Shown in pieces: positions 1-40,433 of a DNA stretch of 64,000 bases. The notes under the pieces were generated by a model. It ran no database searches and was not told the origin of the DNA. It was given only the letters and a program-made list of their open reading frames with translations. The stretch is taken from positions 9,178,001 to 9,242,000 of the forward strand of contig CM119372.1 of assembly GCA_051294905.1 (NCBI GenBank), written 5' to 3'. Made by a program: the position numbers and the translations under genes. Numbering within the stretch: the stretch's first letter is position 1; each line of letters starts with the position of its first letter. The DNA comes from Botryllus schlosseri (lineage: Eukaryota).

Positions 1-2616
1 TAGAAATAAGACTGCCAAAAAATGCATTGCATTGCGCTGCCGGGCATTGTATCGGGATCAATTCAATGAACGGCAAATGCAAAATTTCAGGCGGGTTTTT
101 GAGATTGTACCTCACTTGCAATTCCTATAATGAACACATCATCGGAAAGGGCTTGCAAAGTACTTCAATAAAAACCCATTTTCGTTTTCAACATCGGCCA
201 GGTTAATTAGAAATAACAGTGCCAAAAATGCATCGCATTGCGCTGCCGGGCATTGTATCGGGATCAATTCAATGAACGGCAAATGCCAAATTTCAGGCGG
301 GTTTTTGAGATTGTACCTCACTTGCAATTCCTATAATGAACACATCATCGGAAAGGGCTTGCAACGTACTTCAATAAAAACCCATTTTCGTTTTCAACAT
401 CGGCCAGGTTAATTAGAAATAAGACTGCCAAAAATGCATCGCATTGCGCTGCCGGGCATTGTATCGGGATCAATTCAATGAACGGCAAATGCCAAATTTC
501 AGGCGGGTTTTTGAGATTGTACCTCACTTGCAATTCCTATAATGAACACATCATCGGAAAGGGCTTGCAAAGTACTTCAATAAAAACCCATTTTCGTTTT
601 CAACATCGGCCAGGTTAATTAGAAATAAGACTGCCAAAAATGCATCGCATTGCGCTGCCGGGCATTGTATCGGGATCAATTCAATGAACGGCAAATGCCA
701 AATTTCAGGCGGTTTTTTGAGATTGTACCTCACTTGCAATTCCTATAATGAACACATCATCGGAAAGGGCTTGCAAAGTACTTCAATAAAAACCCATTTT
801 CATTTTCAACATCGGCCAGGTTAATTAGAAATAACAGTGCCAAAAATCCATTGCATTGCGCTGCCGGGCATTGTATTGAGATCAATTCAATGAACGGCAA
901 ATGCCAAATTTCAGGCGGGTTTTTGAGATTGTACCTCACTTGCAATTCCTATAATGAACACATCATCGGAAAGGGCTTGCAAAGTACTTCAATAAAAACC
1001 CATTTTCGTTTTCAACATCGGCCAGGTTAATTAGAAATAAGACTGCCAAAAATGCATCGCATTGCGCTGCCGAGCATTGTATCGGGATCAATTCAATGAA
1101 CGGCAAATGCCAAATTTCAGGCGGGTTTTTGAGATTGTACCTCACTTGCAATTCCTATAATGAACACATCATCGGAAAGGGCTTGCAAAGTACTTCAATA
1201 AAAACCCATTTTCGTTTTCAACATCGGCCAGGTTAATTAGAAATAAGACTGCCAAAAATGCATCGCATTGCGCTGCCGGGCATTGTATCGGGATCAATTC
1301 AATGAACGGCAAATGCCAAATTTCAGGCGGGTTTTTGAGATTGTACCTCACTTGCAATTCCTATAATGAACACATCATCGGAAAGGGCTTGCAAAGTACT
1401 TCAATAAAAACCCATTTTCGTTTTCAACATCGGCCAGGGTAATTAGAAATAAGACTGCCAAAAATGCATCGCATTGCGCTGCCGGGCATTGTATCGGGAT
1501 CAATTCAATGAACGGCAAATGCCAAATTTCAGGCGGGTTTTTGAGATTGCACCTCACTTGCAATTCCTATAATGAACACATCATCGGAAAGGGCTTGCAA
1601 AGTACTTCAATAAAAACCCATTTTCGTTTTCAACATCGGCCAGGTTAATTAGAAATAAGACTGCCAAAAATGCATCGCATTGCGCTGCCGGGCATTGTAT
1701 CGGGATCAATTCAATGAACGGCAAATGCCAAATTTGAGGCGGGTTTTTGAGATTGTACCTCACTTGCAATTCCTATAATGAACACATCATCGGAAAGGGC
1801 TTGCAAAGTACTTCAATAAAAACCCATTTTCATTTTCAACATCGGCCAGGTTAATTAGAAATAACAGTGCCAAAAATCCATTGCATTGCGCTGCCGGGCA
1901 TTGTATTGAGATCAATTCAATGAACGGCAAATGCCAAATTTCAGGCGGGTTTTTGAGATTGTACCTCACTTGCAATTCCTATAATGAACACATCATCGGA
2001 AAGGGCTTGCAAAGTACTTCAATAAAAACCCATTTTCGTTTTCAACATCGGCCAGGTTAATTAGAAATAAGACTGCCAAAAATGCATCGCATTGCGCTGC
2101 CGGGCATTGTATTGAGATCAATTCAATGAACGGCAAATGCCAAATTTCAGGCGGGTTTTTGAGATTGTACCTCACTTGCAATTCCTATAATGAACACATC
2201 ATCGGAAAGGGCTTGCAAAGTACTTCAATAAAAACCCATTTTCGTTTTCAACATCGGCCAGGTTAATTAGAAATAAGACTGCCAAAAATGCATCGCATTG
2301 CGCTGCCGGGCATTGTATCGGGATCAATTCAATGAACGGCAAATGCCAAATTTCAGGCGGGTTTTTGAGATTGTACCTCACTTGCAATTCCTATAATGAA
2401 CACATCATCGGAAAGGGCTTGCAAAGTACTTCAATAAAAACCCATTTTCGTTTTCAACATCGGCCAGGTTAATTAGAAATAAGACTGCCAAAAAATGCAT
2501 TGCATTGCGCTGCCGGGCATTGTATCGAGATCAATTCAATGAACGGCAAATGCCAAATTTCAGGCGGGTTTTTGAGATTGTACCTCACTTGCAATTCCTA
2601 TAATGAACACATCATC
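1..2616 (-). repeat. 206-bp tandem repeat array, left arm of giant inverted repeat (~12.7 units in window, continues beyond left edge)
   Basis: Near-identical units recur with a 206-bp period (ORF-track copies at 139, 345, 551, ...). The array stops at ...catcatcg (2616). Confidence 0.98.
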
Positions 2617-2969
2617 GATTGACCGAACAATACAATCGCCAGTGCTGATATTGCAACATTGGTTCCTTTTCTATTGATATTATGTAGGCCTAGTTATGCT
2701 GTCACTTTACACTAGTGAGTTGCTAATATTTTAAAATACATGCATTTTGCAAGTATTTTCTGCTTCGTAATGTTGTTGGAAATTTGGCATGCAGTCGACA
2801 TAGGATCGTAGCGTTGAGCACGTCATTGTTTCTTCGATTCTCTGCAGCATTTCCAATAGCTCAGCTAGATAGACCAAACCGTGTTTAGTTGGACTATACG
2901 TGTGTTTATGCTTTGCCAGGGGAGTAGCTTTGAGGATTGAAGCGTATCGACTATACCATACCATACCAT

Positions 2970-5900
2970 ACCGCCTGAAATTTTGCATTTGCCGTTCATT
3001 GAATTGATCTCAATACAATGCCCGGCAGCGCAATGCGATGCATTTTTGGCAGTCTTATTTCTAATTAACCTGGCCGATGTTGAAAACGAAAATGGGTTTT
3101 TATTGAAGTACTTTGCAAGCCCTTTCCGATGATGTGTTCATTATAGGAATTGCAAGTGAGGTACAATCTCAAAAACCCGCCTCAAATTTGGCATTTGCCG
3201 TTCATTGAATTGATCCCGATACAATGCCCGGCAGCGCAATGCGATGCATTTTTGGCACTGTTATTTCTAATTAACCTGGCCGATGTTGAAAACGAAAATG
3301 GGTTTTTATTGAAGTACTTTGCAAGCCCTTTCCGATGATGTGTTCATTATAGGAATTGCAAGTGAGGTACAATCTCAAAAACCCGCCTGAAATTTGGCAT
3401 TTGCCGTTCATTGAATTGATCCCGATACAATGCCCGGCAGCGCAATGCGATGCATTTTTGGCAGTCTTATTTCTAATTAACCTGGCCGATGTTGAAAACG
3501 AAAATGGGTTTTTATTGAAGTACTTTGCAAGCCCTTTCTGATGATGTGTTCATTATAGGAATTGCAAGTGAGGTACAATCTCAAAAACCCGCCTGAAATT
3601 TGGCATTTGCCGTTCATTGAATTGATCCCGATACAATGCCCGGCAGCGCAATGCGATGCATTTTTGGCAGTCTTATTTCTAATTAACCTGGCCGATGTTG
3701 AAAACGAAAATGGGTTTTTATTGAAGTACTTTGCAAGCCCTTTCCGATGATGTGTTCATTATAGGAATTGCAAGTGAGGTACAATCTCAAAAACCCGCCT
3801 GAAATTTGGCATTTGCCGTTCATTGAATTGATCCCGATACAATGCCCGGCAGCGCAATGCGATGCATTTTTGGCAGTCTTATTTCTAATTAACCTGGCCG
3901 ATGTTGAAAACGAAAATGGGTTTTTATTGAAGTACTTTGCAAGCCCTTTCTGATGATGTGTTCATTATAGGAATTGCAAGTGAGGTACAATCTCAAAAAC
4001 CCGCCTGAAATTTGGCATTTGCCGTTCATTGAATTGATCCCGATACAATGCCCGGCAGCGCAATGCGATGCATTTTTGGCACTGTTATTTCTAATTAACC
4101 TGGCCGATGTTGAAAACGAAAATGGGTTTTTATTGAAGTACTTTGCAAGCCCTTTCCGATGATGTGTTCATTATAGGAATTGCAAGTGAGGTACAATCTC
4201 AAAAACCCGCCTGAAATTTGGCATTTGCCGTTCATTGAATTGATCCCGATACAATGCCCGGCAGCGCAATGCGATGCATTTTTGGCACTGTTATTTCTAA
4301 TTAACCTGGCCGATGTTGAAAACGAAAATGGGTTTTTATTGAAGTACTTTGCAAGCCCTTTCCGATGATGTGTTCATTATAGGAATTGCAAGTGAGGTAC
4401 AATCTCAAAAACCCGCCTGAAATTTGGCATTTGCCGTTCATTGAATTGATCCCGATACAATGCCCGGCAGCGCAATGCGATGTATTTTTGGCAGTCTTAT
4501 TTCTAATTAACCTGGCCGATGTTGAAAACGAAAATGGGTTTTTATTGAAGTACTTTGCAAGCCCTTTCCGATGATGTGTTCATTATAGGAATTGCAAGTG
4601 AGGTACAATCTCAAAAACCCGCCTGAAATTTGGCATTTGCCGTTCATTGAATTGATCCCGATACAATGCCCGGCAGCGCAATGCGATGCATTTTTGGCAG
4701 TCTTATTTCTAATTAACCTGGCCGATGTTGAAAACGAAAATGGGTTTTTATTGAAGTACTTTGCAAGCCCTTTCCGATGATGTGTTCATTATAGGAATTG
4801 CAAGTGAGGTACAATCTCAAAAACCCGCCTGAAATTTGGCATTTGCCGTTCATTGAATTGATCCCGATACAATGCCCGGCAGCGCAATGCGATGCATTTT
4901 TGGCAGTCTTATTTCTAATTAACCTGGCCGATGTTGAAAACGAAAATGGGTTTTTATTGAAGTACTTTGCAAGCCCTTTCTGATGATGTGTTCATTATAG
5001 GAATTGCAAGTGAGGTACAATCTCAAAAACCCGCCTGAAATTTGGCATTTGCCGTTCATTGAATTGATCTCAATACAATGCCCGGCAGCGCAATGCAATG
5101 GATTTTTGGCACTGTTATTTCTAATTAACCTGGCCGATGTTGAAAACGAAAATGGGTTTTTATTGAAGTACTTTGCAAGCCCTTTCCGATGATGTGTTCA
5201 TTATAGGAATTGCAAGTGAGGTACAATCTCAAAAACCCGCCTGAAATTTGGCATTTGCCGTTCATTGAATTGATCCCGATACAATGCCCGGCAGCGCAAT
5301 GCGATGCATTTTTGGCAGTCTTATTTCTAATTAACCTGGCCGATGTTGAAAACGAAAATGGGTTTTTATTGAAGTACGTTGCAAGCCCTTTCCGATGATG
5401 TGTTCATTATAGGAATTGCAAGTGAGGTACAATCTCAAAAACCCGCCTGAAGTTTGGCATTTGCCGTTCATTGAATTGATCCCGATACAATGCCCGGCAG
5501 CGCAATGCGATGCATTTTTGGCACTGTTATTTCTAATTAACCTGGCCGATGTTGAAAACGAAAATGGGTTTTTATTGAAGTACTTTGCAAGTCCTTTCCG
5601 ATGATATGTTCATTATAGGAATTGCAAGTGAGGTACAATCTCAAAAACCCGCCTGAAATTTTGCATTTGCCGTTCATTGAATTGATCCCGATACAATGCC
5701 CGGCAGCGCAATGCAATGCATTTTTTGGCAGTCTTATTTCTAATTAACCTGGCCGATGTTGAAAACGAAAATGGGTTTTTATTGAAGGACTTTGCAAGCC
5801 CTTTCCAATGATGTGTTCATTATAGGAATTGCAAGTCAGGCACAATCTCAAAAACCTGCCCGGAATTCGGCATTTGCCGTTCGTTGAAACTGATGCCGAC

Positions 5901-6090
5901 GCAATGGTCGACAGCGTAATGAAATGCTTTATTGGTACTCGTAATCGTACTTAACCAGGACGAAGTTGAAAATGAAAATGGATTTTTATTAAAGCACTTT
6001 GCAAGCTCTTTCCGATGATGTGTCCATTGGCGGAATTGTATGTCAGGTACACTCTCAAATCCAGTCTGAAAATAGACATTTGCTGTACAT
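2970..6090 (+). repeat. 206-bp tandem repeat array, right arm (reverse complement of left arm; ~14 units plus a diverged terminal unit at ~5830-6090)
   Basis: Same unit in opposite orientation (copies at 3150, 3356, ... 5416). The last unit is visibly diverged. Confidence 0.97.
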
Positions 6091-6673
6091 CGGCAGTTCG
6101 GTACTCAAACAAGAGCGAAATATAGCGTAAAAGTTGCTAATCGTATTCAAAATTAAGCAGGACGAAAGACAATCCCTAAATACAGCATGCCCGAATGTGT
6201 ATTTAGTGAAAATCGGAATCTTTCGACACAGGATAGATCCGTTTCAATGGAGCAATCGGTGAATCGTCAAGTTGAGGGTTAATATTTCGTCATGTCAAAA
6301 ATCGTGTTTCACATGATCACAAAGATTTCGCCGAAATTTCGCCAGGACGACTTGAGTATCTCGGAATAGCGGACCCGGACTATGGACTTGCGAATCACAA
6401 ACATATTTTTATAATCGATAAGAAATTTGTACAAGATTTTCAGAAGCATGAAAAATTCGAAAAAAATCATTATCGTAAATGATTGGAAATATATGATGCC
6501 GGATAATTTGCTTTTATTTGTCACTGCATTCTGTGAAGCTACCGACCACATCTATATGCCACCACCAACTTTAAATGCCGCGTTGACACGTCAATCAATT
6601 TCAGCCCATCATATGGTGTTGATCGTGAATTCTGCTGCAATCTGCATATAGGTAAAAATAAACAAACACAGGG

Positions 6674-9600
6674 ATGTTTCCCTTTCGTAAGAATACCGAG
6701 TTATTAGAAACTGTGGAGAAGCAAAATGAACAACTTCGAAGATATGAAAGCAGATTGAGAGGTAAGCCTGCACACTGCTATACTGTCGTTACTTTTGTAT
6801 ATTTTACACCACCTTATTTGTTTTTAAAATAGTTTAGTCATACTTTTCGAGGTGAAAAACATGACTCCAGTGAACAATATATCTATTTAGCAAACCTTAA
6901 CCTGAGACCTGAAATTCTTCAGCTCAGCTGGCAACCATACAATTTTTGATTTCAAATTTCGATACGTAGCCAAGCCTATACCAGTGCTACCACTGGCCCT
7001 GCATGGAATCAATATGTTTTATTATTTTTTATTAAATAACTTTACCTTGGAGAATTATCGCTGCTCACCTGTTATATTAGGCAATACGTACCGAGATTCC
7101 AGTAGGGCCACTACCTAACTGATACATATGTTTCCAAGACTCAAACTAAAACACTGTTTTTACACAATGATTACTTTGGATTGTTGATCATATTTGAAGC
7201 ATAAGTCATGCCCATGCTTCCACTCTTCCATAAGAACTTAATGAAGATGAGCTGCTGGATGGATAGAATTTTTTAGGCTGGAGCTGGATGTGATATGATC
7301 ATTGAAATCTGTTTCTTATTCTTTGTACCAAATGCGTTGAGATTATGCCCAAACATGCTGTCGGAGGTGTTATATGTTATTATTCCATTTGCCTCTACCT
7401 ATCTTTGTGGAAATGGATTTTTGGCTCTCGGTCATATCAAAGACACGAATACATATTTCACGATATGGATGGAGCATATTTTCATATATAGTATGATGTT
7501 ATTTTCCGGAAAAGTCTAATTGTTGCTGTTTACCACTAGCCTACTGTTAATTAGACAGATGACGCTTTTTAGCCAAATTTGAAGTAAAATTATTTTGGGG
7601 TCCCCAAGGGCCTGTGGCAGTCCAAAAGGGGTCTGCGAAGACAAAAAGATAGGTAACCTCTGTAGTAATATGGTATGACCTTTGAGTATCGCACCCTATG
7701 TATGATCAGTGATCACTAGGGCGATTCTTTTTTGACCTAAAAAAATGAATATTTTGAGTTGACCCAAAAAATTGAAATTTTGATATTTTTTGACCTTAAA
7801 AAACTTAGGTCAAAATTTGGTCAAAAGTAACGCTACAATTTTGTCAAAATTTTGACTTTTTTTTACATGTCAAATACAATGGCCCTAGTGATCACCTGTT
7901 CGAATCAGGAAAGGGATAAAACAAAAATCTGTTATGCCGGCAGATTAAGACCTCTGTTTTATTACACGGAATCAACATGCCCACTCTTTCCAGACTTGGT
8001 GGCTGCATATAAAAGTCTACAAAATGAAAAGAAAGCCTTAGAAGCAAGCGTAAAGGCACTGAGCGCGGGGCATGTATCAAGCACACAGGCTCCCGGTAAA
8101 GCTAAAGGTCGACCTGTACCATCAACCGCCAAGGTGTATCTGATTATTAAGATTGGTATGTCTTCAGCGAAATTTACTTCGGATTTGTACTTGCAGACTG
8201 AATCATCTCCCAAGCATTCGACAGATGATACGAACTCCGAGTTCAATAAAAATGAAGGAGATATCAAGTCTGACGGTAATACATCTACTTGGCATGCACT
8301 TATTGTTGAATTTGTGACAGATTTTGAGTTTTTCTAAATGCATCGCTATTAAGCGCAGTGCACATTTGCGTAATTCGTACGCGCGTACTGGACGCGTAAA
8401 GTATTTTGGTAGTTTCTTTCCTTTCTCTGCTCTTCTCTCGTTTGCTCGTCGCGAAAAGAGCCTCTTTTCTCTCGTTTTTTACGCGGGCATTACGCAGACC
8501 TTACGCGTAGAGAGCGATTCGTACGCGCGTATTGTTGACTTGCCAAGCTCCCAAATATGGTCCAGAAAAATGCCCGGCATTTTAACACCTACCTTGGCTA
8601 GGTAACGTGTCTAATCGTTTTGAAAAGCTTATTAAATCGGCTGTGCACCGTTGTTATTTCAGCGTTAACACGCATGTGGTGTAGCCTACACGACGAAATC
8701 CTTGTTGCCCAACCCTCGAAAATATGTACTTCCTGCCTTTAATGCAAGCAATGTTGTCTACCAATACAAGTGCCACTGTGATAAGATTGTTTGAGCGTAT
8801 TAAGCAGCATATCCCTTAACTGATTCGGCCAAAAACATGCGCAAATGATCGCACGGAGCTCGCATGTCAGTGCAAATTGACTGCTATGACGATTACCAAG
8901 CATATGCTTCATCAATTGGTCAGCATCTGAGTGAAAACCTCGCCAGTGCACAGCACTATAATGACAATATCTTTACTGTCATTGCGCGTGGCAGATCTTT
9001 GTTTCATTTAAAAGTTTTGGAGTCTAATATTATTCAGTTGGACAAACCTATTTTATGCAGACGAAAAGATTTCGTTGATAACCTACATTTTTCTCATTAG
9101 AGCGTGTAAATCTTTTCGTCTGCATAAAATAGGTTTACTGTTTATTTACAAATTGCGTTGCTATTATAGTACAGTATGTCCGTCCGTATACTTCAAAGTA
9201 TCTTACTGTTGCCATTGGTACAATGCGAATTTCATGGTCTGTGATTTTGATTGTTGCGTTGCTGACACTCGGCGGCGACAACGTGCGGCACAGCGCTAAA
9301 TTTGTTCTCACTTTTCCTTCAGCGATGACGTAACCTCTCGTTTTGGCCAACTTAGTGAGAGAGTGAAAATCGTACGCGCGTACGATTTACGCTAATGTGC
9401 ACTAGGCTTTAGGGTTGTTAAAAAATCAGGATTTGCAATAATATAGGGTTACCATACTCTGAATTGAAATTTTACTGTTGACCCCATAAACTTGTTCAGT
9501 TGTCAACAAAAACGATGCTAAAGAAATTTGAAGCAATTTGAACCCGTAGAAGCGAAGCTATTTGATTTTTTCCAAAATAATTCTGGGATTACCCACAATT

Positions 9601-12600
9601 CAATGCTATTTTTGCAAATCCAAACTTTCAACTGCAATAACTTCGCTTCTACCAGTTGGAAGTGAGCAAAAATTGTTATACATGGTTCTTCTAGGCAACT
9701 TAACAATTCCATGGGGTCGACGATAAAATTTGAAGAAAAAAAATTTTTTTTTTCATAAATTTTTTAAATTTCAATTGACTCTGCCACGGTTTGTGCTGGT
9801 TGGAATTGATCTAAATTTGGTTTGCAGCGTTTTTTAAGCACTTTTGCATCTAAATAGTGAATCCCCGGAATCTCAAAAAAAGGTATTTTCGCCCCCAGAT
9901 GCACCCATGGGTGTTTGTCATAGGGAGCACCACCTAATCCTTGAAGTGAAAGTATCTTGTGCCGCCATAGCGACAACTACAAATATTCTTTTTCGATTTC
10001 TTGAAAAAGGAGGACATTCAAAGAGGTGAAGGATGAGATATATCAACCGTAGCAATAATAGTATTTACGGTGGGTAGGTCTACAATAAACACCATATTTT
10101 TCAAATCCAACTTTGCTTCTACTGGTTGGAATTGAGCCAAATTTGCTGTTCATCACAACTCCACAATTTCGTATGGTTTCCTGTAGAACTTGAAAAAAAA
10201 ATTTTTTTGCGTTCTTGTAACAATTATTAAAAAAATTTCTGACTCTCGATAGCTTTGCTTCAACACGTTGGAAGCAAGCCAAATTTGGTGGTAAGCGTTT
10301 TTTTGCCAACATAACACATAGCCAGTGAAATTTGTGGATAGAAGTTATTATTAAACAACCCCCTAATGGCGATAATGACAGTTTTGTCCATAGAAACGTT
10401 GATCATTATAAGCATGTTGTTATTTAAGGGGAAAATGAGACACAATCTGATGAGGGACACCATGAGTTGACTGAATCAATCGGGACTGATGAAGAGAAGA
10501 CAGAGAATGCGGGATCAGAAGATAACAGTCTCCGTCATCAAATCATGACCTTGACTCTGTCGTTGTCAACTGTGTCCGAAGAAAAATCAAAAATTGTGGC
10601 TACATACCAAGCTGAGAGAAGAAAAATGAAGGTACTAGTTTGCCACCCAACGCCCGATACGTTCCGGAGTCAACATATTTTTGCTTCCTCGCACAGCAAG
10701 AGATGGATTCCCAAGTCGCGGAGTTTAAAGAGGAGTCGGAAGCCTTGCGAAAAAGAAAGTCCGAACTCGAGGAAGACTTATCGCAGGTGCGTCTTTATTT
10801 GTGATCGAGGTCAAGTTGGTCGAATTCAGCAAATTAGCAGCAGTTCTTCCCGATAATTTCAAGTGATCACTTGAATATGTACTTTACCTAGGAGTGGGTC
10901 TGCTACGTTAATGACCAATTCATGAATTCATATTAATTAGGCGAATAAGTTTTTTTTAAGATCATCGTCTTTTAAGGTAAAAGAGAAACTGCGTAGTGAG
11001 CAGGAAGATCGCGAACAGGAGCATTCGACGCATTCTCTCATGTTGCGCGAAATTCAGAAAATGCTGAATGACGAAAGAATCAAAAATGACCAACTCGGAC
11101 AGGATGTAAGATATGTATTACTGTGCTGCTGCCCTATTTGATTTAGTCACCTTTGACACTTCTATCTAGGCCCCGTCTCGTTTTATATGTACCGAGTGTC
11201 ACTAAGTATATATAATATATATATCATGCTATTTAGTCATTGGGGTGTTGATAATTATTATTAGATTGAGATATTTCCATTGTCTTAGTCCATGGTGCTT
11301 TATATTATGTCAACGCAATCAAGTTACCACACAGTAAAAAATAGTAGCCATTTTGCCTTTCGAAACCAGATCAATATACCTTAATATTTATCATTTCCTT
11401 TCTATATTGCTACTAGCTTCAGGACGCGCGGAAAGCCATTCAAAAAACCGAATCCGAAAATAAGAAACACGAAAACAGCGAGAAGCAAATGCAAAAATTA
11501 ACACAAGAGATTGAAGCTTTGAGGTCAAGGCTGAAAGCCGTCAAAGAAGAGGCAAAGAAGCCGCAGCCAATTGTCGAGAAGCTCCAAAGGGAAATCGCCG
11601 AAATAAAGGTGTTTACAGAATTATTTTTGTCAATTTCGACCAACTCATGAGTCAGTATGCCTATTAATCTTTAATTATACGACACATATTTTAATGTCAT
11701 TGGCATTATGTTAGTGCGTATTTCACAAATTATGTATGTTAACTATATTATTACATAATTACCCCTGACAAGTGTCAGTTGACAATATTAGGGTTCATTT
11801 CAATATGAATAGAATATACAATATAGATACTATTCAATTATATATCTGTGCTCTAGAATCTTATTTCGATTGGTGACTGTCTTGTCACAGCAATGCGATA
11901 ACATGGTATATCGAACCGATAAAATTACTGAACGGATAAATGAATGACATACTACAGGCGGCCAACCGAATTCAACTGGAGAGAGAACACTTGCAATATC
12001 TCAACTCAGACGAGAGGCACAAGAAATCCGAGAAGGAGGCCGAAGAAAGGGTTTCCGCCTTGGAGGAACAAATAACTCAATTGTCCAATCAAATGGGGGG
12101 CTACGAAAGCGTTAAAAATCGTGACCAAAAACAGATCAGGTACGGTTGTGCAATAGTGTTGTGTTTTCGCCTGATTTTCAATGTCTTCTCAAATTTCAAG
12201 AACGTTGAAAGAGCGTATATCCCAACTGGAAGTAGAAAACGGAATACTCGCAAAGCAGGCGGCGTCTGGGGGGCGGTTCGATCAAGAAAACACAGACTTG
12301 GACGATATCGAAAGCCTGAAGCAGCAGATCGTTAAATATAAGGGCCTTCTGAAGTCGGCTGTACAGAAATCGAGCATCGTTTTAGATGTGGACGGTAACG
12401 TTGGCTGCGTGCAGGGTAATGAAAGTATTCAAATAACGTTGGTAACTGTGTAGGCTGGATAGTGGATATGAACGGTGGTATGAACGGAGATGAATACCAG
12501 AGAATGTATGTGGACACTAATCAAGAACTCCAGCAACTGAGAGATGAATTTGATAAGTATAAGGTAATGATAAAATACCTCAATTACAAAGTGTGGATAC

Positions 12601-14872
12601 CTAAAATTACATCACTTGAGCGTTTCCAACTTGAAAAGTATTGATTTGGTGTAAAATTACTGTGAAGTTGCAATCGGATATTACATCAAAATTCCTAAAG
12701 TACAGTACATTTTCAGCCACAGAGTGACTCCTGTCTCCCTGGGAGAGATGGCTAATCCGACATTTTCTTAAATATTGCTATGAAATACTTCACAGCTTGA
12801 CGTTTATTGAGACTTGACCGCCAATTATGGTTGTTATCGCCAGACCAGATGAAGTTAACTTGTATATGTGTGTGAAATGGCGCACTGCATCATTGTAACT
12901 GAATGTACATTGCACCTATTTGTTTCGGAATTTCAAATCCGATGAAATCCTGAAGGTACGAGAACCCCTCGACCGAATTTACTTTTTTAAACTATTTGAG
13001 TACTTTATCAGACCTTCCATTTCCTATGTTCACTTGTGGTAGTTTTGAGTTCTTTGAAATCGCTACTTCTATTTGTACTTCAGTAAAAAACACCCGGGTT
13101 GTAACCAAGTCGCAAGTCAAATCTACGTTGACGGTTTTGACTCTGTTGAACTTGCATTCATATTATAGAAATTTTCCTTACTTTACACAGTTCCTGGCCT
13201 TATTTTACAAATACCAGTAGATAGACGAAATACCAATACCGCAATGACTCGAGTGTAAATCGAGACGATACACAAATTGCCTCAAGTCGAGTCAAGTTAT
13301 TTTCCATATGTTAGAAAAATGACTCGAGAGTCAAGTCGAGCCACCAAGAAATCGTGAACCGAGTCATTACAACCCTGCAAAACTCTGACTGCTTTGGCCG
13401 CCTCTCTGGGGCTTGACATCAGCCAACATGATGTATCTCTTCCTCTTCCTAGGTACGGGCTCAGAGCGTCCTCAAAACGAGGAAGGAAAGCATCATGAGC
13501 AAGGAGAACGCGGCAGTGATTGCGACTCAGCAACAATATCAAGAATTGAAAGACGAATTGGAAGAAGTCCGCGAGCGACATTTCCATCTACGATCGCACT
13601 GCGACAGCCTCGAGGAACAACAGACAAAATCGGTTGGAAATTAGCTTTGCTTTCAATTTCCGGCATAGTAATCAAACGTCGTCGCGTGTCAAGATGAAAG
13701 AACACGGCGAGGAACTGATGCGCCGTCATCTCGAGCATCAGACACGGCTGGAAACGCAGAAGGAAGACTTTGCCTCCAAGATAGCGGATCTGGAACAGGA
13801 GATGAGATCTCAGAGAGAGAGGACCGTCGCGCTCTTGGCCGAGAAGGACAAGGAGATTCGGCACCTGCAAGCGTATTCCGATGCGTGTCACAGGTATTTG
13901 TGACCGTCGTGTGGAACGCATTCGTCGACATGACAGTGATTTGCTCGATATTGGAGAGTGCTTTCATAGGTTACATAGTCATAACTACATCCAAGTAATT
14001 CAATAATAATCAAGAATCAGTGGTGCTACTATATACATTGACCAAGTAGTACCAATGCCCGGCAGTACATTGACATTGTTCATGATCTCTTTCATGTTTT
14101 GTCTCTTACAGAGAGTATCAAAACGACTATAACACAAACTCTGCGGACTTGAAGTCATCGACAGACAATGACTTTGTGTTTCACGGCACTGAAACTGCCA
14201 GGGACAATTCCGTCGCCGACATCATATCAAGAGTACGTTTCGACGTACACAAATGTTTGGTGCGCGCGTGTTTACCACCTGAAATTCGATTTAGGGCAGC
14301 CAAGACGGGACGGCTATGATTCATTACGCGGAGCAGATGGCGCGAAAGGACATTTCGATTAACGGTCTTCGTCGCCAAAAGAAGCAGCTCGAGTTGCAAA
14401 TCAGACAGTTGCAAGACGCGATCATGACGAAGTCGGTGTGAATTGTAGCAAAATGCTTGCATGGACCCTAACTCTATGCTTCTTTGTATTTAGAGACGAC
14501 AAGTATTCAAAGGAGATCGCGAGTTTACAGGAGAAAATATCCAGTTTTAATAGGACAAAGTAAGTGACGTATTATATGTTTTGCAGTGATACTATCTTCG
14601 AACATATCTGGGTATTCCAGTTGATTTTGGTCTTGCTATGTGAATTGTTTTGAAACGTCTAATTTTGTTTTGAATTCTAATTTTCAAAAGAGCTTGACCT
14701 TGCATCATTTATCAGATCGAGAGCCAACGCCAATCTCGAATATTTGAAGAATGTCATGTTCCAATACCTGACAACGGATAAAGATCAAACGGCTCGAAGT
14801 CGAATGCTCAGTGCGGTTACCGCAATCTTACAATTTAGTCCCGAAGAAATTAAGAAAGTGGCGAAAAGATAA
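6674..14872 (+). CDS. GCC1: GRIP and coiled-coil domain-containing protein 1 (trans-Golgi golgin GCC88), ~16 exons
   Basis: Spliced N-terminus MFPFRKNTELLETVEKQNEQLRRYESRLRDLVAAYKSLQNEKKALEASVKALS matches the GCC1 N-terminal motif. Long coiled-coil exons follow. The last exon (~14716-14872) encodes a GRIP domain, ANLEYLKNVMFQYLT...AILQFSPEE. Approximate GT-AG exons: 6674-6761, 7994-8133, 8197-8275, 10429-10631, 10697-10786, 10977-11105, 11417-11608, 11957-12139, 12201-12394, 12454-12563, 13452-13632, 13694-13892, then four more to 14872. Confidence 0.93.
7250..7662 (+). mobile_element. hAT (Charlie/Buster-like) element remnant with degenerate transposase C-terminus
   Basis: Peptide VLYVIIPFASTYLCGNGFLAL resembles the hAT C-terminal dimerisation motif (PFxTTYLCExGFS). 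The end ...gaagacaaaaagataggtaacctctg is related to the terminus of the 50321-51134 element. Confidence 0.7.
7717..7887. mobile_element. Small hAT-type MITE
   Basis: Termini TAGGGC...GCCCTA, perfect 8-bp TSD GTGATCAC, internal TTTTGACC subrepeats. Confidence 0.85.
8352..9408. mobile_element. PIF/Harbinger-like non-autonomous element
   Basis: TIRs AGCGCAGTGCACATTTGCGTAATTCGTACGCGCGTAC / GTACGCGCGTACGATTTACGCTAATGTGCACTAGGCT, flanked by TTA on both sides. Confidence 0.7.
8559..9100 (+). pseudogene. Penelope-like retroelement ORF remnant (linker and GIY-YIG region) with stops and frameshifts
   Basis: Translation gives GPEKCP..LPWLGNVSNRFEKLIKSAVHRCYFSV, NVVYQYKCHCD and SSIGQHLSEN...FTVIARGRSLFHLKVLESNIIQLDKPILCRRKDFV, typical of the Penelope C-terminus. 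Confidence 0.8.
13094..13377 (+). mobile_element. hAT-type MITE, family A (CAGGGTTGTAA termini, GACTCGAGTC subrepeats)
   Basis: CCGGGTTGTAA...TTACAACCCTG; degenerate 8-bp TSD; homologous to the 15127, 16373 and 52680 copies. Confidence 0.8.
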
Positions 14873-24221: not shown

Positions 24222-26876
24222 CTATTTTTTTAGAGCGTTGCCTCTCTTGTTCGACTGCCAAATCGAATTCTTAATAGTCACCGCATCGATGCTAACGGAC
24301 AATGTTTTGGAAGGCAGCGACGCGAAAGACTTGCGCCCGGAATTATACTTGAACAGCCGGTCGATCATGTTCGGTAAGATACAACTGGGGCCGCTGCCGT
24401 ACAGCTTCAGCAACTTCTCCGTTTCCGGGTCGTAAGTGTACAGAGCGCGAAACTGACATTTGGTGTCGCGGAACAAGATCATGAAATGTCTCTCCTCCGA
24501 TAGCTCAAACGCTTGAAGTGCGTGGGAACGAGCTATCTCGTTCACTTTACCCGGCAGACAGCAGTGGCAAATAGCGTTGTGTATGATATGCTTGTTCGAT
24601 TTCGAACTCGGCTCCTTGTATAATTTCGGACCGTTATAATCCGCCGATACGGCAGACGAAGTCGCAGACTCTGTCTCCCACTCGAGCCGTCCGCCAGTAG
24701 AAAGTCTTTTCGCCCGCAAACTTCTCAAACTAGGTGCGTGGCTGCCTGCTTCGCTGTGAACCGCCGTCCCTACTTCGCTGACATTCGACACTGATCCGGC
24801 TAGCGATGAAGAGTACGGGTGTCCCTTTTTATCTTGCGGTTTCGCATGCTTTTTCGTCGTCGCGATTATATCGCCGGTGTCACGCATTCTCTGGCTCTCT
24901 TCCTGTTCCATTTTTCGTTTTTTATGCTCATCTAAAATATGCTGACGCTTTATCTTATCCTCCTCACGTTTCGCGTTTGCCTCTTCTTGCTTAATCCTGG
25001 TTTCTTCCTTCTTCCGTTCCTCCTCTCTTTCTCTCTCAGCCTTTTTCCTCTTCAATTCCTCCTCCTTCTTCAGTTGCTTTAGGAGAAACAACTCCTTCTT
25101 TTTTGCCATTAACGTATTGGGGGTCGCGTCGTCTATAAGTTCGAATCCCTCGCCGCCTTTTCGATTGCGATCGGCAGTTCTCAGCAGCGAGCCAGGCGAG
25201 TCATTGCTATCGGCTTTTTCAGGATTTGGTTCAATTATATTGACTTGCCGCGTCGGTGACTGGTGAGGCGTTGATTTGTTTGCGTCTTTTTCAGAGATGA
25301 CTTCGGAAAATGAGTTGTAAGTGAACAGCAAATTACTTCTGACCGAGCCTTGATTCGGATCCAAATTTTCTTGTTGAAAAAGTCTATCGGAGTCACCAGC
25401 GGGTAGAGATTTGCCACCATGCCACGTTGAGACACCGGATACGTTTGGCACAGTCTTTCTGCCTAAATCTCCCAATATTTCGGAGCCAACGATTTCCCCA
25501 GACGTCGCAACGTTTGGCGCATCACCGTCAGATTTTTTGGGTGTAAATCCGTCCCGAGTACGATTTGACGATGGTGAAGATACACGAGGCAATGAGTGAT
25601 CCAACGTTGACGGTGTGTCGTATGAATTATATGCATTCGGTGTGAGTAGATCGTATGATTTTATTGATGCCTGTTGATGTGTCTCGTGCATTGTCGGCGG
25701 CAACGGTATTGAACTTGTATGCTGGCTCGAGACTCCATGACGTTGATGAAATGATTGGGTTGAACTAACTTCATGAAAGCTTGGTTCGCCAACCTCATAA
25801 TGAGGTGCGGGAATACTTTCATTTCCGTTTAAAATAGGACGGAAATATTCAGTGTTAACATCTCCTTGCAATTTTGAATCACTCAGATATACTTCGCCGT
25901 GTTCAAGATTATCAGAAAACAAGATCCTCCTCGATTCCTTTGAACGTCTGTTCGAAATAACCTGTTTTCCGGGTGACATATTCGATTCCGACGGGGTGAA
26001 GACGCTTTGTTGCATTGAATTAGGCGAGATTGTTTCGGCAAGGTAAGTAGAGTCCAGATCCACGCTGCCTGTGCCTTGTCCTTTGTTATTATTATTATTT
26101 ACTGATATCAGAGACATGTTGACGAAATTGTGAGAACGGGGAGACGATTCATTGGCGAACCCGCATGTTTTCGGGCTTGGAGAATTATCGGGAACATCAT
26201 CGGTGGATAGAGCAGCATCAAGTTCACGTTGTAAACTAAGCAGATCGTTGGACCAAAGATCTTCCCTCAAACGTTTTTCGTTCTCGATTAAATCGCGACG
26301 ATCTGACTTTTTCATCCTTCCCTTTTCAATCATTGTTTTTCTCTCCTCCATTTTCTTCAAAGTTTTTGTAAAATTTTTGTCGGCGGCCATATTACTGTGA
26401 CGTCTTTGAGCGTTTGGAGTGAATTTAACAGGCGGTCTTTCCATCCAGCTCATAGTCTTCACACTCCTGGGAGACGATTTCGGAAGTCTATTGGGATTGC
26501 GCAGTTTAACAGTTGCGCCGCCAATATTAATGTGGCTGCGGAATGCAGATACACCTGGCGATCGGGATGTTGGAATTGATGGGTCTCCCGCACCATCAAA
26601 CCCGTTCGTATCCGAATGTGTTCGCTCCCCATCAAAAGTTCTACGTGGCGTAGGAACAGGCGGACGATCGGCAGGTCTCATATGTAGGGTCTGACCGATT
26701 TTACTACGAATAAAATTGGTAGGATCTTGATAATCGCCGATTTGAAAAGATCCGCGCGATCGATCTCGACAGTCTACCAGCATGTTCTTTTGCAAATCGA
26801 AGATTGACACTTCTCCCGACACTGAATCTCCGTAAAATCCAGGCTTGACGGGGGACGAGTTGTCTACAGTACCCAT
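24222..26876 (-). CDS. CAMSAP: CAMSAP/Patronin-family microtubule minus-end protein; single coding exon (~884 aa) with no CH domain visible
   Basis: C-terminal CKK domain GPKLYKEPSSKSNKHIIHNAICHCCLPGKVNE...FMILFRDTKCQFRALY...LFKYNSGRKSF...SIDAVTI, preceded by the coiled coil MAKKKELFLLKQ...RQHILDEHKKRK. The ATG sits in a gccATGg context after an in-frame TGA. Confidence 0.9.
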   Translation of the reverse strand: MGTVDNSSPVKPGFYGDSVSGEVSIFDLQKNMLVDCRDRSRGSFQIGDYQDPTNFIRSKIGQTLHMRPADRPPVPTPRRTFDGERTHSDTNGFDGAGDPSIPTSRSPGVSAFRSHINIGGATVKLRNPNRLPKSSPRSVKTMSWMERPPVKFTPNAQRRHSNMAADKNFTKTLKKMEERKTMIEKGRMKKSDRRDLIENEKRLREDLWSNDLLSLQRELDAALSTDDVPDNSPSPKTCGFANESSPRSHNFVNMSLISVNNNNNKGQGTGSVDLDSTYLAETISPNSMQQSVFTPSESNMSPGKQVISNRRSKESRRILFSDNLEHGEVYLSDSKLQGDVNTEYFRPILNGNESIPAPHYEVGEPSFHEVSSTQSFHQRHGVSSQHTSSIPLPPTMHETHQQASIKSYDLLTPNAYNSYDTPSTLDHSLPRVSSPSSNRTRDGFTPKKSDGDAPNVATSGEIVGSEILGDLGRKTVPNVSGVSTWHGGKSLPAGDSDRLFQQENLDPNQGSVRSNLLFTYNSFSEVISEKDANKSTPHQSPTRQVNIIEPNPEKADSNDSPGSLLRTADRNRKGGEGFELIDDATPNTLMAKKKELFLLKQLKKEEELKRKKAEREREEERKKEETRIKQEEANAKREEDKIKRQHILDEHKKRKMEQEESQRMRDTGDIIATTKKHAKPQDKKGHPYSSSLAGSVSNVSEVGTAVHSEAGSHAPSLRSLRAKRLSTGGRLEWETESATSSAVSADYNGPKLYKEPSSKSNKHIIHNAICHCCLPGKVNEIARSHALQAFELSEERHFMILFRDTKCQFRALYTYDPETEKLLKLYGSGPSCILPNMIDRLFKYNSGRKSFASLPSKTLSVSIDAVTIKNSIWQSNKRGNALKK

Positions 26877-27438
26877 GGCAGTCAACCCGATTCAAGTTGC
26901 AATGCAGAAAATATGATGTGTAAACATTCTTAATGACATGAAGACAAAGAAAGCTGAACAAAGATTCAAAAGTTGATTCATAATGATCTGAAGTTTCACT
27001 AATAACGGCATGTTCCTAATCTTAAACATGTAAGCTATTTGTGCAAGTGCAACCAACACAATTTGTGTGAAATTAAGTCCGAGGTGATACAGAGAGGCGG
27101 TCAAAGTTGTCATGGTTGGTACTGAGTATCAGTATAAGTATTGTCTTAAATTTCTACTCAAGTACAAGTAGAAATAGCAAATTCCAATTAAGTAATCAAG
27201 TAAGTATTCTAAGTCTAGTCTTGCAAAAATACTCAATACTGGTAAGTAGCCTAGATAGACATAGAATTAGTTATAAAATCATACAGTAACCACTCGAATA
27301 ATTATTATAGTGCAAGTATACAAAGTAGCCTATACAAAATCGACTTGGGAGTACTTCAAAAAGTTCAAGTACTTCGCTACTGACCATCTCTGGTGATACA
27401 GAGGAGGTTGATTGAAACCAAAAGGCTATAGAAAAAGC

Positions 27439-28087
27439 GGCACTTCTTCGATAGTAGGTAGACATCGAAAAGTGTTCACCATGATCACCAATAAATGTTT
27501 TCCATGAACAGAACACGAACAAAAATGTATAAACGTTGAAATAATTTTTTTTGTGCCTTTGGAGAGACGGATATTAGGGTTGGGGTGGGCAGTATTAGGG
27601 TTGGGGAAAGGGGGATATTAGGGTTGGGGAGGGAGATGTTAGGCTTGGGGGAAATTAGGGTTATGGGAGGGGGATATTAGGGTTGGGGAAAGAGGGATAT
27701 AAAGGTTGGGGGAAATGGAGATTGGAGGTGGGTTAGGGTCAAAGTGGGGGTTAGGGTATCCCAAGATTACGGTAAGCGGTAAGGGGAGATATTAGGGTTG
27801 GGGTGAGGGACATGATATCCAACCCACTGTGACCCTAATCCACCTGCAATCCTCCTTTCCCCCAACCTTTATATCCCCCTTTCCCCAACCCTAATTTCCC
27901 TCAAGCCTAACATCCCCCTCCCCAACCCTATTATCCCCCGTTCCCCGGCCTTAATATCCGTCTCTCCAGAGGCACAAAAAAACAATTTATTCTGACGTTT
28001 ATAAATTTTTGTTCGTGTTCATGGGAAACATTCATCGGTGATCCTGGTGAACACTTTTCGATGTCTACCTACTATCGAAGAAGTGCC
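27439..28087. mobile_element. Palindromic (foldback) MITE, Merlin-like, with G-rich telomere-like internal repeats
   Basis: GGCACTTCTTCGATAG...CTATCGAAGAAGTGCC; arms are complementary over most of the length; perfect 8-bp TSD GAAAAAGC; internal GATATTAGGGTTGGGG units. Confidence 0.85.
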
Positions 28088-29030
28088 GAAAAAGCATCTC
28101 TTGGCCTATATGGAATCTCTGTCCATTTTTTGAAATAAATCCTGCGTGATGAGAGCTTTTCTATATAGAATAATTAAGGAATTAAACAGAAAATCCTGCG
28201 TGACGTTGCCACCAATTCCACTCCGGTCTCTTGGTGAGACATAGGGAGAAACCTGTTGAAATTTCAAAGTCAAAGCTTGCAATTTGAAAACAATATGATT
28301 TGGTTGTTTTCCTGCAGACAATAGACGTGCGCTAGTAGACTTGACACCAATGGACTTGGCATTACAATCAAATATAGGTGATTTTAATTTTCAATTGAGT
28401 TTGAGATACGGTATGTCTAAATATTCTGGATTTCCATTATATATCAATTTCTGAAACATACTAATGATATAAGAGAGTCAAGTTTCGCTTGCCCTTCCCA
28501 GCAATGATTCTTCTGGCTTAGGTACGCTATGATACTCTAATATAACTAACATAGCCCTGGCCCCTATGAATTTCATTTTCTCAGGTCTGCCTCTTCTAAC
28601 AATCACCCAAATACAAATTCTCTCAACTTGAATTATACATATACTAATATAGGCTGTATGCTTTCGAAGCATGGGATGGGTCCGATTCCGTGCGATAATA
28701 GCATATTTTAATCAACGAAACATCTTTAGTAGTATGTAGAGAAAAGCTAGCAGCGGTGAAATTCTCGTATAGTCGTATAACGGTCAGTAAATGATAAACA
28801 GTGCAGTTTCTAATCACAGATCGGTCATGCGAAACGAAAATGCACAATGACGTCATTAGTGAGCTTCAAGCTGAAATTGGGAATGTACGGATGATCGGGT
28901 TATAGAATTGAAAAAAAACGTGTTTAATCGTCCTCTGTCAAGGAAATGAAAGCAATGCTACATAGATGACATCAAAATTCGGCGCCACTGGCCTGTTAAA
29001 CCGGTGCCACCCTTTCGACGGGGTGAAGGC

Positions 29031-32074: not shown

Positions 32075-32560
32075 CTTGGTTCGGTTCGGTTTATTTGCAA
32101 TTTTTATCAGTTCATTACACCACGAAAATGCGATACAATGACAATAAGATAGGAAGGTTTCGAAACGACTTGGAGTAGTCTTTGGAATCAGACACCCACC
32201 TTGGCCTCGAGGCGATGTAAAGAGGAGGCATGCACACAGAATGAAAAGTAAAAGAAGATAGTATAAAAGAAAGCAGGCGACAAAAAAAGGGATGACATGT
32301 CACGGGAGGCGAGATCGATAGGTCAGGTCATGGTCAGGTAATCTTGAGGGCGGACTAGTATTCATTTAGTAGAAATTGCTTGCATTTCGATTTGAATGTG
32401 CGGACATGCTCGTCGTCTGTCGGATGGCCTGCGGGATACTGTTCCACATGTCAGGTCCGGCATATTTGATAGAGCGATGATCTTTTCAGTCGATCATATG
32501 ATATTTGGACGACGTCGACGTGCGCGTGTTGTACTTATGCGCTTTGATTCTGTTGAGTTG
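32075..32560 (-). mobile_element. 5'-truncated CR1/L2-group (Crack-like) LINE 3' end
   Basis: Shares its 3' UTR with copies at 33835, 34262, 36495 and 61675. On the minus strand it ends in AATAAA plus (CCGAA)n. Confidence 0.7.
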
Positions 32561-32812
32561 ACCTTATTTTTCGCGTCACATGCAGAACACTCTGCCTTCA
32601 CGTGCATTTTTGACCGTGTTAATTAAATATATCTCACTGCATGTTCTAACATTTTCGCACCCTGTCGCCCCCAAGTTGCCCCCTTCGGCATCTTCACCCA
32701 TTGTTTCTCAAAATCGCCCACTGGGGGGCGATATCGCCTCGCCCACGTTGAGGTTGAGTTGTGAACCACTGGCTATAGGCCAAAGAATGGAGAAGCGAAT
32801 AATTCTAGATTT

Positions 32813-33400
32813 TTGGCCTAGGCGATGTAAAGAGGAGGCATGCACGCTGAAAGCAAAAAGGACGAGCAACAAAATGAGCTGGTAGGCTATATGTGACGAC
32901 AGGCGAGATCGGTATGTCAGGTCGTGGTCCCGTGAAGTAGAGGGTCGACTAGTATTCATTCAGTAAAACTTGCATGATTGTATATCGACTTGAATGCTCG
33001 GCAACTGGCGGATAGCAGGCGAGATACTGTTCCACATTAAGTCCGGCATATTTGATGGAGCGGTGATCTTTCGCGTGGATCATATGATAGCCTACCTGAA
33101 CGACGAGAACGCGCGTGTGTTGTGTTGTGCTTATGCACTTTTGGTACCCAGGTAAAGAAGGCAATTTCTAGTTTCCGCATATCTTTTATGTTTAGGACAC
33201 GGAATCTTTTGAACAGTGATTTGTTTGACGCACAACCTGGCTCCATGCATTGATGCCCTGGCTATGATGTCTAGGATCTGATGTTGAAGTTTTTGCAGTG
33301 GCTTGAGTGCGCTAACACTTGTCTGGTAGCTCCCCAGCAGAAGATACCATACTATGATTTCGATTGGAATAAAGAGTATTAGAAGGAACCAGCGCGGCAT
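32813..33400 (-). mobile_element. Crack-like LINE fragment with ORF2 C-terminal remnant
   Basis: Peptides ALKPLQKLQHQILDII, SLFKRFRVLNIKDMRKLEIAFF and RSIKYAG resemble the post-RT region of Crack/Daphne ORF2, followed by the shared 3' UTR. Confidence 0.75.
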
Positions 33401-33423
33401 GAAGTGTCCAAGTTACAACAGGC

Positions 33424-34745
33424 CAGAGGTGGTCGGTAACGGAGTACTTCTACCTTTTCGAAGTACTCAAGTAGTTTCCGCTACTTGCACTACTTACTCA
33501 AGTATATCTAATCCTCCGCTACTTCTACTTCACAATATTTTGTGATCTACTTACTTACTTACTTCAGTTTGTCAAGTAGTAGTAGCTTAATCCTCCAATC
33601 AGAAATATAGCCTGAGGAATTTCGGGTCTGTTTTCACCAGAGATATCTAAAAAACGTTTTAGATATCCCTGGTTTTCACGGAGTACCAACATTTAACTTT
33701 CATGAAGCCCAGAATTTTCGTCGTGCTTCGCGCACAGTAGATATCGAGTGACAAATATGTTTTCACGAAAGTATCGGTGAATATCATTTAGGTGGCGGGT
33801 GGCGTGGTTCCGTTCACACCGCAGTATCAGTATTAATATTTTAATCATTCCAAAACACAACAAAATTGCGATACAATGAAAAGATAGGAAGGTGCCGAAA
33901 CGACTTGGAGTAGTCTTTGAGATCAGACACCCACCTTGGCCTAGGCGAAGTAGAGAAGATGGCACGCACACTGAATGAAAAGTAAAGCAGAGAATATAAA
34001 AGGCAAGCGACCAAATGATGTGGCATGTGGCGGAAGGCGCGATCGATGTTAGGTCGTGGTTCGGTAATCTTGAAGGCTGACTAGTATTTATTTAGAAGAA
34101 GTTGCTTGTATTTCGGATAACAGGCGAGATGCTGTTCCACAGTTGGGGTCTGGCATACTTGATAGAGCAATGCATTTTCTTGTATTCCGTCCTGATCATA
34201 TGGCAATTGTTGATCTTCGTTGACGTGCGTGTGCAGTAGGCTACTTGTGCGCATTGTCGCCCATATCAAATATTTCATCCCGCCGTCCATCCGACAGTCG
34301 ACGAGCATGTCCACATTCAAGTCGAAATACAAGCAATTACTACTAAATAAATACAGTCCATCCTCAAGATTACCGGACCACGACTGACCTATCGATCTCG
34401 CTTCCCATGACATGCCGCCCTATTTCTTGTCGCATTCTTTTTCTATACTATCTTCTTTACTTTCATTCAGTGTGCATGCCTCCTCTTTACATCGCCTAGG
34501 CCAAGGTGGGTGTCAGATTCCATAGACTACTCCTTGTCGCTTCGACATCTTCCTGTCTTTTCATTGTATCGCATTTTTGTGGTGTATTGAACTGATAAAA
34601 TTGCTAATAAACCAATGATGATGATGATGATAAATACGGCTCAGCATAACGTTTGAAACTACTACAATCCAGCAATTTCCTATCATGTCGTAATCCAACA
34701 GCCCATGGCATCTCCTAATCTGGAAAAGTGGACTCTTGACTTTTT
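33424..34745 (-). mobile_element. Family B element (CAGAGGTGGTC termini, AGTAGA/TACTTC-rich), partial, interrupted by LINE tails
   Basis: Reverse complement of the right part of 34865-36087; homology resumes after the 33830-34630 insertion. Confidence 0.7.
33835..34635. mobile_element. Two back-to-back Crack-like LINE 3' ends (minus 33835-34260, plus 34262-34635)
   Basis: The same 3' UTR occurs in opposite orientations; the plus copy ends in AATAAA..(ATG)n. Confidence 0.7.
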
Positions 34746-38977: not shown

Positions 38978-39489
38978 TAGGGCTGGGCAAAATCGAGTAC
39001 CTGAGTGATTCGATTCTGAATCACGTGATATGCTTCGAGTCGAGTCGAGTAATCGAGTATCACTCATTATGACGTCATAACTGAATGGAATACGTCAAAG
39101 TTCAAATATGTGCCTTTTATGCGACCACAAAGAATATAATGCATGTTATCCGTCACATTAAATATATTTTAATAGTTTTCTGACCATACTGATTTCATTG
39201 CACTTGATGACAATGTTGCGGGATGATAATGACTTCGAAAATATGCTATTTCCAGTAACGTTCGTAGCTTTGTACTATATGTTTCGTATGCTACGCTACG
39301 GCCAATCAAGGTTGCAAGGCTTCGACAGTGAAAATTAGAATCGAAACTATAATTCTCGTTGATATATTAATTTCCAGTGGCGAGGAGCGTATAATTTCAG
39401 TCCTCGGAAAAATCGTCTTTTACTACTCGACTCATCAAAATTTCTACTCGATTCAGATTCGAGTACTCGAATCATTGTGCCCAGCCCTA
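38978..39489 (+). mobile_element. MITE, family C (TAGGGCTGGGCA termini)
   Basis: TAGGGCTGGGCA...TGCCCAGCCCTA; inverted second copy 66 bp downstream. Confidence 0.85.
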
Positions 39490-39555
39490 GAGTACAGGAA
39501 CACAAACCCAGCTCTCTGCACCGTTCGCAGATGCCAATTTCGAGCTTATGATGAT

Positions 39556-40433
39556 TAGGGCTGGGCACAATGATTCGAGTAATAATTTTAATGATTTGAG
39601 TCGAATAGTAAAAGACGATTTTTTCGAGTACCGAAATTGAACAGCTTCTTTGAGGTACAGAACTTCAATATACAATTGAATAGTATATTCATATTGAAAT
39701 GAACCCGAATATTTTCGGCTGACACTCGTCAGGGGTAATCGTCCGCAACTAGTAGAGAATTCGAAAGAACAGCGTATATCAACAATCGTAACACAAAATA
39801 TGACGTCACCAGCACGAAATGTCGAATACGAGAGCGTTCAATGTACTATTTTTAGATGATACACGAAATCTTTTCGTTGACACAGCCTTGGCTGGTGTAT
39901 TTTGATAAAAGTCGACTCCAAGGCACACAAATGAAAGTGTGAGCGACCCTTTCCGAGTATGCGAAATCTGTCGTCTCGATAATTTTTCGCACAGGCGGGA
40001 TTATCCAACCAGTGTTTGCCAATTGCAGAATTTATGGCCTTTGATTGTTCCGATTGTACCGAAATTGTACACTACTCGCCAGTGAAAGTTAATTTATCAA
40101 CGAGAATCATAGTTTCGATACTAATCTTCACTGAGGCCTTGATTGGCGGTATCATAGCATACGAAACATAACGTACAAAGCACTGGACGTAGCACATTTC
40201 CGAAGTCATGATTATCCCATAGCATATTCACTAAAATCGATATGGTCGAAAAAATACCTAAGTATCATTTATGAGATGGATAACAGGCATTATATTCTTT
40301 GTGGTCGCATAAACCTCACATATTTGAACTTTGACGTATAACATTCTGCTATGACATCATAATGAGTGATACCCGAAGCATATTACGTGATTCAGAATCG
40401 AATCACTCAGGTACTCGATTTTGCCCAGCCCTA
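39556..40433 (-). mobile_element. MITE, family C, longer inverted copy
   Basis: TAGGGCTGGGCACAATG...TTTTGCCCAGCCCTA; reverse complement of 38978-39489 with extra internal sequence. Confidence 0.85.

Follow-up and report, generated by a model that had tools for sequence, protein, structure and literature searches.

In a 64,000-nucleotide stretch of the Botryllus schlosseri genome (assembly GCA_051294905.1, contig CM119372.1, positions 9,178,001 to 9,242,000 of the forward strand; hereafter the window, to which all positions refer), we identify what we read, with a probability of roughly 85%, as a non-autonomous DNA transposon of the foldback, cut-and-paste type, about 6.97 kb in length and recently inserted, with modular inverted repeats and belonging to a small, homogeneous family. 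Its structure is that of a foldback element: the long inverted arms contain tandem repeats in variable number, an outer, non-repetitive flanking domain (6151-6357) is present at the right end, and the variable middle domain has no coding capacity according to the searches that we made. Evidence of mobility comes from public contigs, where the right end occurs at 7-14 times single-copy depth in all four runs analyzed, and where an apparent empty site is found in one of three samples.

Two opposite arrays of a 206-bp unit

Tandem Repeats Finder reports a 206-bp period in a left array at 1-2617 (12.7 copies, 97% matches) and, on the opposite strand, in a right array at 2971-6059 (15.0 copies, 96% matches). 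We cut the units of both arms at one common anchor and named them L1-L13 (left) and R1-R14 (right), with two diverged units, R0 and R-1, lying outside R1 (Table 1). This layout confirms an earlier, sequence-only reading of this DNA, which had described opposite 206-bp arrays around a 353-bp spacer and had paired position 1 with about 5742; we find that position 1 pairs with 5742. The same reading had let the palindrome extend over 1-6090, which falls short, the element reaching about 6352-6357 in public contigs.

Both arrays break off mid-unit at the borders of the spacer, after unit position ~144 on the left and ~92 on the right. Identity to the unit consensus climbs from the end of the element inward, from 71% to 86% and then to 97-100%, and even within R0 it is 67% in the outer quarter and 98% in the inner quarter. 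Outside these units, the segment at 6151-6357 shows an overall similarity to the 206-bp unit that is not above that of shuffles. From symmetry, the diverged left units and left terminus are predicted upstream of the window, with the terminus at 610-615 bp, inside the about 650 bp allowed by the sequence-only reading; the whole element would then measure 6.96-6.97 kb.

A multi-copy right end and an apparent empty site

We aligned contigs of 4 public runs (3 samples; 12 runs listed) to positions 5800-7600. Runs X1 and X2 represent one sample, which may be the source of the window, and runs X6-X8 were excluded for their small word shares. Contig depth serves here as a rough proxy, and a summed depth is not a copy number. 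Contigs of the end segment have depths of 137, 1080, 1307, and 17.8, against 15.7, 91, 92, and ~2.5 for single-copy contigs of the flank, i.e., they are present at 8.7, 11.9, 14.2, and 7.0 times the single-copy level in the four runs, with 1-3 differences. Contigs of the diverged units give much the same multiples (8.3, 11.0, 12.8, and 6.9), with 0-2 differences.

The element ends at 6352-6357. Binned depth drops to the single-copy level after the bin 6349-6409 in X1, X2, and X9, the end contig terminates at 6352 in two runs, and a rough model of the binned depths places the end at 6353-6355. In addition, two X9 contigs at haplotype depth (48.5 and 43.4) match the window only from 6358, with 222 and 249 other letters before this position. 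We read these contigs as an apparent empty site on both haplotypes of this one sample of the three. Two other positions for the end were considered: a piggyBac-like TTAA end at 6279-6282, rejected because multi-copy contigs run through it to 6332-6352, and an end at 6362, which is not favoured by the empty-site match beginning at 6358 or by the depth model.

The abundance of the 206-bp unit was compared with that of the end. Summed unit depth is 8-19 times end depth (four runs, approximate), and one arm holds 13-15 units; unit abundance thus fits arm-sized arrays, with no sign of a separate large satellite. An independent satellite DNA, in which units would far exceed ends, was rejected on this same rough ratio. 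From the depth of the end, about 4-7 copies with both ends would be expected in a haploid genome.

Several further observations concern this region. Run X5, which is labelled as another organism, contains a near-identical end, while its flank differs about as much as do haplotypes within the organism that we label A, with no cover at 6410-6775. In the flank at 6384-6512, two haplotypes differ at 10 of 128 positions, which indicates high heterozygosity in the species. At 5810-6013, an X1/X2 contig at single-copy depth goes back 204 bases, and another copy of the family therefore seems to have duplicated a diverged outer unit.

Outer units are mirrored between the arms

The sequence-only reading had proposed that outer units carry their variants in mirror order on the two arms, that inner units do not mirror, and that the left arm has one additional unit, and all three proposals hold. 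L1 (1-207) and R1 (5742-5536) have three variants in common, an inserted A and two substitutions; L2 and R2 have three substitutions in common, including the sole outer-unit variant present exactly once per arm; L3 and R3 are both consensus; L4 is an extra unit with no partner in the right arm; and L5 (826-1031) and R4 (5123-4918) have six substitutions in common. The mirrored pairs L1/R1, L2/R2, L3/R3, and L5/R4 differ at 2, 1, 0, and 1 positions, respectively, i.e., at 4 positions in about 825 bp taken together, against a mean of 3.6 over the 156 left-right pairs.

We permuted unit order, using statistics that were selected after the data had been seen. The score of an outer-anchored alignment was reached by none of 20000 shuffles (p<1e-4), the best collinear chain anywhere, i.e., without an anchor, was reached by 40 of 10000 (p 0.004), and 2527 and 3958 of 100000 shuffles attained the cruder counts that match units by index (p 0.025 and 0.040). 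A spacer-anchored alignment scored no higher than chance (p 0.88), with inner units not mirrored. Some variants are private to one arm: 143G>A occurs in three right and no left units, and 183G>A in two left and no right units. In addition, L4-L5 resembles L9-L10, and this likeness, together with the repeated variants found in one arm only, fits independent internal duplication.

Four markers had been put forward as diagnostic of the mirrored units, and one of them, the 'YVASPF' unit, is indeed unique, being present in one unit per arm. The other three are not: three units of the left arm and five of the right have the 'FLALL' pair, two left units (L5 and L10) have the 'ISIQ..CNG' haplotype, and the signature of the first unit is found again, in part, in L13 and R14, the partial units nearest the spacer.

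Table 1. Components of the element and its right flank (positions in the window)
Feature	Positions	Strand	Description
Left arm	1..2617	+	L1-L13: 12 full 206-bp units and 1 partial; continues past the window start
Outer left units L1, L2, L3, (L4 extra), L5	1..1031	+	Variants mirror R1-R4
Middle segment	2618..2970	.	353 bp, 39% G+C; terminates in a short 5-base microsatellite
Right arm	2971..5742	-	R1-R14: 13 full units and 1 partial
Outer right units R4, R3, R2, R1	4918..5742	-	Mirror partners of L5, L3, L2, L1
Diverged unit R0	5743..5948	-	86% to unit consensus; unchanged in multi-copy contigs
More diverged unit R-1	5949..6150	-	71% to consensus; multi-copy
Terminal (flanking) domain of the right inverted repeat	6151..6357	-	Multi-copy; not unit-like overall; end at 6352-6357
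Right flank	6358..6700	+	Single-copy; contigs of another sample begin matching here

Spacer, coding capacity, and a repeated motif

As far as our searches reach, this copy is non-autonomous. No transposase was found in it with Pfam or phmmer. The longest open frame of the spacer (79 residues), the only frame searched, has no Pfam match at the cut-off and one below it; a phmmer match of this frame to a prokaryotic repeat protein (E 5e-4) is a sum of weak, repeated matches, and we took it as chance. We treated the reading frames within the unit as non-coding, 206 not being a multiple of 3. Neither the spacer nor the segment 6090-7225 has a further significant copy within the window. Rfam gave no match at E<=1 across 2200-6600, and the RNA fold of the unit is unremarkable (z -1.7, with 9 of 200 shuffles as good), so that there is no sign of a satellite ribozyme.

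A 9-base motif, CC(A/T)GG(A/C)CGA, is present near the end at 6342-6350, once per unit, and again at 5955 and 6157, with three occurrences in the remaining 57,600 bases of the window. By analogy with described elements, each unit would add a likely transposase-binding site through this motif. In collections without animal genomes, a motif of the unit was found at no locus in viral, prokaryote-genome, and metagenome contigs, and a motif of the end at no locus in metagenome and prokaryote-genome contigs. In Muta1, a larger number of subterminal repeats raises transposase binding and excision (PMC5499845), and extra binding sites supplied by repeats have been suggested for Tetris (PMC4079207) and Galileo (PMC3573991).

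How the element may have formed

Each terminal inverted repeat would consist of an end domain of ~200 bp, two old, diverged units, and 13-14 near-identical 206-bp units. The unit itself probably arose by duplication of a subterminal segment that held a copy of the near-terminal motif. We suggest that a transposase made elsewhere in the genome recognises both ends and moved the element here recently; this is based on the apparent empty site and the homogeneous ends. The mirror order could be explained if both arms derive from one end sequence, with the units beside the unique end domain shielded from unequal exchange and keeping their inherited variants, while inner units would have been duplicated and deleted separately in each arm. 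The original middle would have been lost or replaced, so that a 353-bp filler, bordered on each side by a break within a unit, now separates the arms.

No special mechanism may be needed for the mirrored order, which could be just that of the family as a whole, since the diverged outer units are unchanged across multi-copy contigs. Alternatively, and in our view unlikely, the order is specific to this copy: starting at the ends, conversion between the arms or copy-back repair during transposition would bring the two arms of each copy back into step, and the inner units would drift. An element of 7 kb that is palindromic over almost its whole length, and has 13-14 units with the motif in each arm, would then still be mobile. 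If copy-specific mirroring is true, the point where mirroring stops would record the time since the last jump. Our literature search found no account of mirror-ordered unit variants, the original FB and TU papers being outside the listings that it covered.

Alternative explanations

A single foldback element of about 7 kb, with modular inverted repeats that expand and contract internally, is what the sequence-only reading had proposed, and it gains support from the sharp, multi-copy right end, the apparent empty site, the arm-sized abundance of the unit, and the arm-private variants. Several points weigh against it. No transposase turned up in this copy; the left terminus, and with it the pairing of the ends, is placed upstream of the window by symmetry; the empty site comes from one sample (X9) and is read from where its contigs begin to match; contig depth is rough, with the evidence drawn from the contig pieces listed; and the binding role of the 9-base motif is by analogy.

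The best-surviving alternative, which we nevertheless regard as improbable, is that the two ends are of different origin, i.e., that a chimeric or head-to-head pair arose when two members of the family recombined, or that a local inversion took place after an insertion. In that case the mirror order would simply reflect how outer units are arranged throughout the family. Both arrays do break off mid-unit beside the filler. The diverged outer units are identical in all multi-copy contigs, so that any two ends would mirror, and Galileo copies with chimeric ends and no matching target duplications are described (PMC3573991). However, the very small number of differences within the four mirrored pairs weighs against this alternative, and so do the empty-site contigs, in which the right flank is joined straight to different single-copy DNA, the pattern that one insertion would leave; neither point is decisive.

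An ordinary satellite array that owes its inversion or reverse duplication to breakage-fusion-bridge or inverted segmental duplication, without any part played by a transposon, is very unlikely. Edge units of tandem arrays are usually diverged, and inverted duplication of an array edge would also yield mirror order. Against this, the ~200-bp non-repetitive segment past the last unit is itself multi-copy, it stops sharply, and the flank beyond is single-copy; together with the apparent empty site and a unit abundance of only 8-19 per end, this favours a foldback element over the inversion of a satellite, as had been proposed from the sequence. Least credible is an assembly or chimeric-read artefact in which a read folded back on itself. 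Such artefacts are known to arise at long palindromes, but the two arms would then be identical, and here the arms differ in unit number, private variants, and inner order and are separated by a 353-bp unique segment.

Comparison with known elements

The layout of the element is already known from Tetris, Galileo, and Rehavkus, and this is not a new kind of element. Our class placement is structural foldback only; we do not file the family under the MULE/Rehavkus group or the P superfamily, which are told apart by their target duplications and transposases. Target duplications are 8-10 bp in MULEs (9 bp in Rehavkus and FB) and 7-8 bp in P or hAT elements, and a MULE-type DDE transposase, with a PHD finger in Rehavkus, would mark the first group. 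The end estimate of 6352-6357 includes 6354, which, if it were the terminal base, would give a CA start as is typical of P-like ends. Our literature search found no foldback elements for ascidians, using tunicate and Ciona searches, with the Ciona results judged by title.

The closest description is that of Tetris from Drosophila virilis, which comprises an end domain, ~220-bp repeats, and a non-coding middle, and in which the repeat has 37 bp in common with the end domain (PMC4079207). As here, Tetris is non-autonomous, its long inverted repeats consist of an outer flanking domain and a variable number of ~220-bp repeats, the repeat has a short stretch in common with the flanking domain, and repeat number shifts by internal duplication (PMC4079207). 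The arms set the two apart: in complete copies of Tetris they measure at most 1,735 bp, hold few repeats, and may retain an inner domain, whereas here they measure ~3.2-3.4 kb, hold 13-14 homogeneous units, and lack an inner domain. Tetris also seeded separate long arrays, whereas unit abundance here is in keeping with the arms by themselves. Target duplications of Tetris are 8-10 bp (PMC4079207), and the likeness is one of description, not of sequence comparison.

Rehavkus, which is MULE-related, also has inverted termini that are long and contain satellite-like repeats in varying number, given as 2-12, as 6-8, or as up to 50 in Tribolium, but its definition rests on a transposase with a PHD finger and on target duplications of 9 bp (PMC6446971; 10.1101/2024.12.02.626372). 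In the P superfamily, to which Galileo belongs and which has a THAP-domain transposase and a 7-bp duplication (PMC4079207, PMC3573991), Galileo F has long inverted repeats with ~210-bp tandem repeats that lie a few hundred bases in from the terminus; repeat number differs between the arms of one copy, and the longest arms occur in transposase-less copies (PMC3573991). Galileo F differs from the present element in having only 0-3 repeats per arm and a 7-bp flanking duplication, and in being from Drosophila (PMC3573991). Muta1 of Aedes aegypti is a foldback MULE in which subterminal repeats bind transposase and raise excision and in which non-autonomous copies retain ends around heterogeneous filler, but these are 12-bp repeats in a 145-bp end, compared to 206-bp units in a 3-kb arm here (PMC5225508, PMC5499845). 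Tm1 (PMC3169594) and Muta1 (PMC5225508) are further Mutator/Foldback examples.

Genomic setting and significance

The window carries the animal genes CAMSAP, golgin A2, and TBCC. In addition, a multi-exon coiled-coil gene at 6674-14869 (+) ends in a GRIP domain (Pfam E 1e-16); we presume it to be GCC1-like. The candidate first coding exon of this gene begins at 6674, and the candidate start codon at this position lies ~320 bp downstream of the right end of the element. Among named relatives, the one closest to the golgin comes from the ascidian Styela clava (36%). The golgin A2-like gene (908 residues; 41240-43966, -) and CAMSAP (889 residues; 24222-26891, -) are each one uninterrupted open frame, and neighbouring genes have many introns.

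Other repeats are present in the window. Palindromic or inverted-repeat elements of 0.1-2.5 kb occur at 7709-7895, 9044-9136, 27438-28088, 32088-34613, 38978-40433, and 44647-45503, pointing to a genome rich in foldback repeats or repeats like miniature inverted-repeat transposable elements. Inside the last of these inverted-repeat elements, at 44781-44982, ~200 bp of a telomere-like 6-base repeat stands beside a 180-bp tandem repeat. Short repeats at ~7022-7107 and ~7376-7520 reach a binned depth of about 1000 times single-copy, with many loose ends at fixed positions, and are very abundant small elements.

The element is a clean, young case of a satellite-like repeat confined to transposon arms, i.e., an early stage of the transposon-to-satellite route known for Tetris and Rehavkus. 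Its position near the candidate start of the GRIP-domain golgin gene and its apparent polymorphism make an effect on expression testable. Since its copies are few and nearly identical and the variants of the units can be read, the family would allow a direct test of repeat turnover in inverted arms, in which outer units are frozen and inner units are shuffled.

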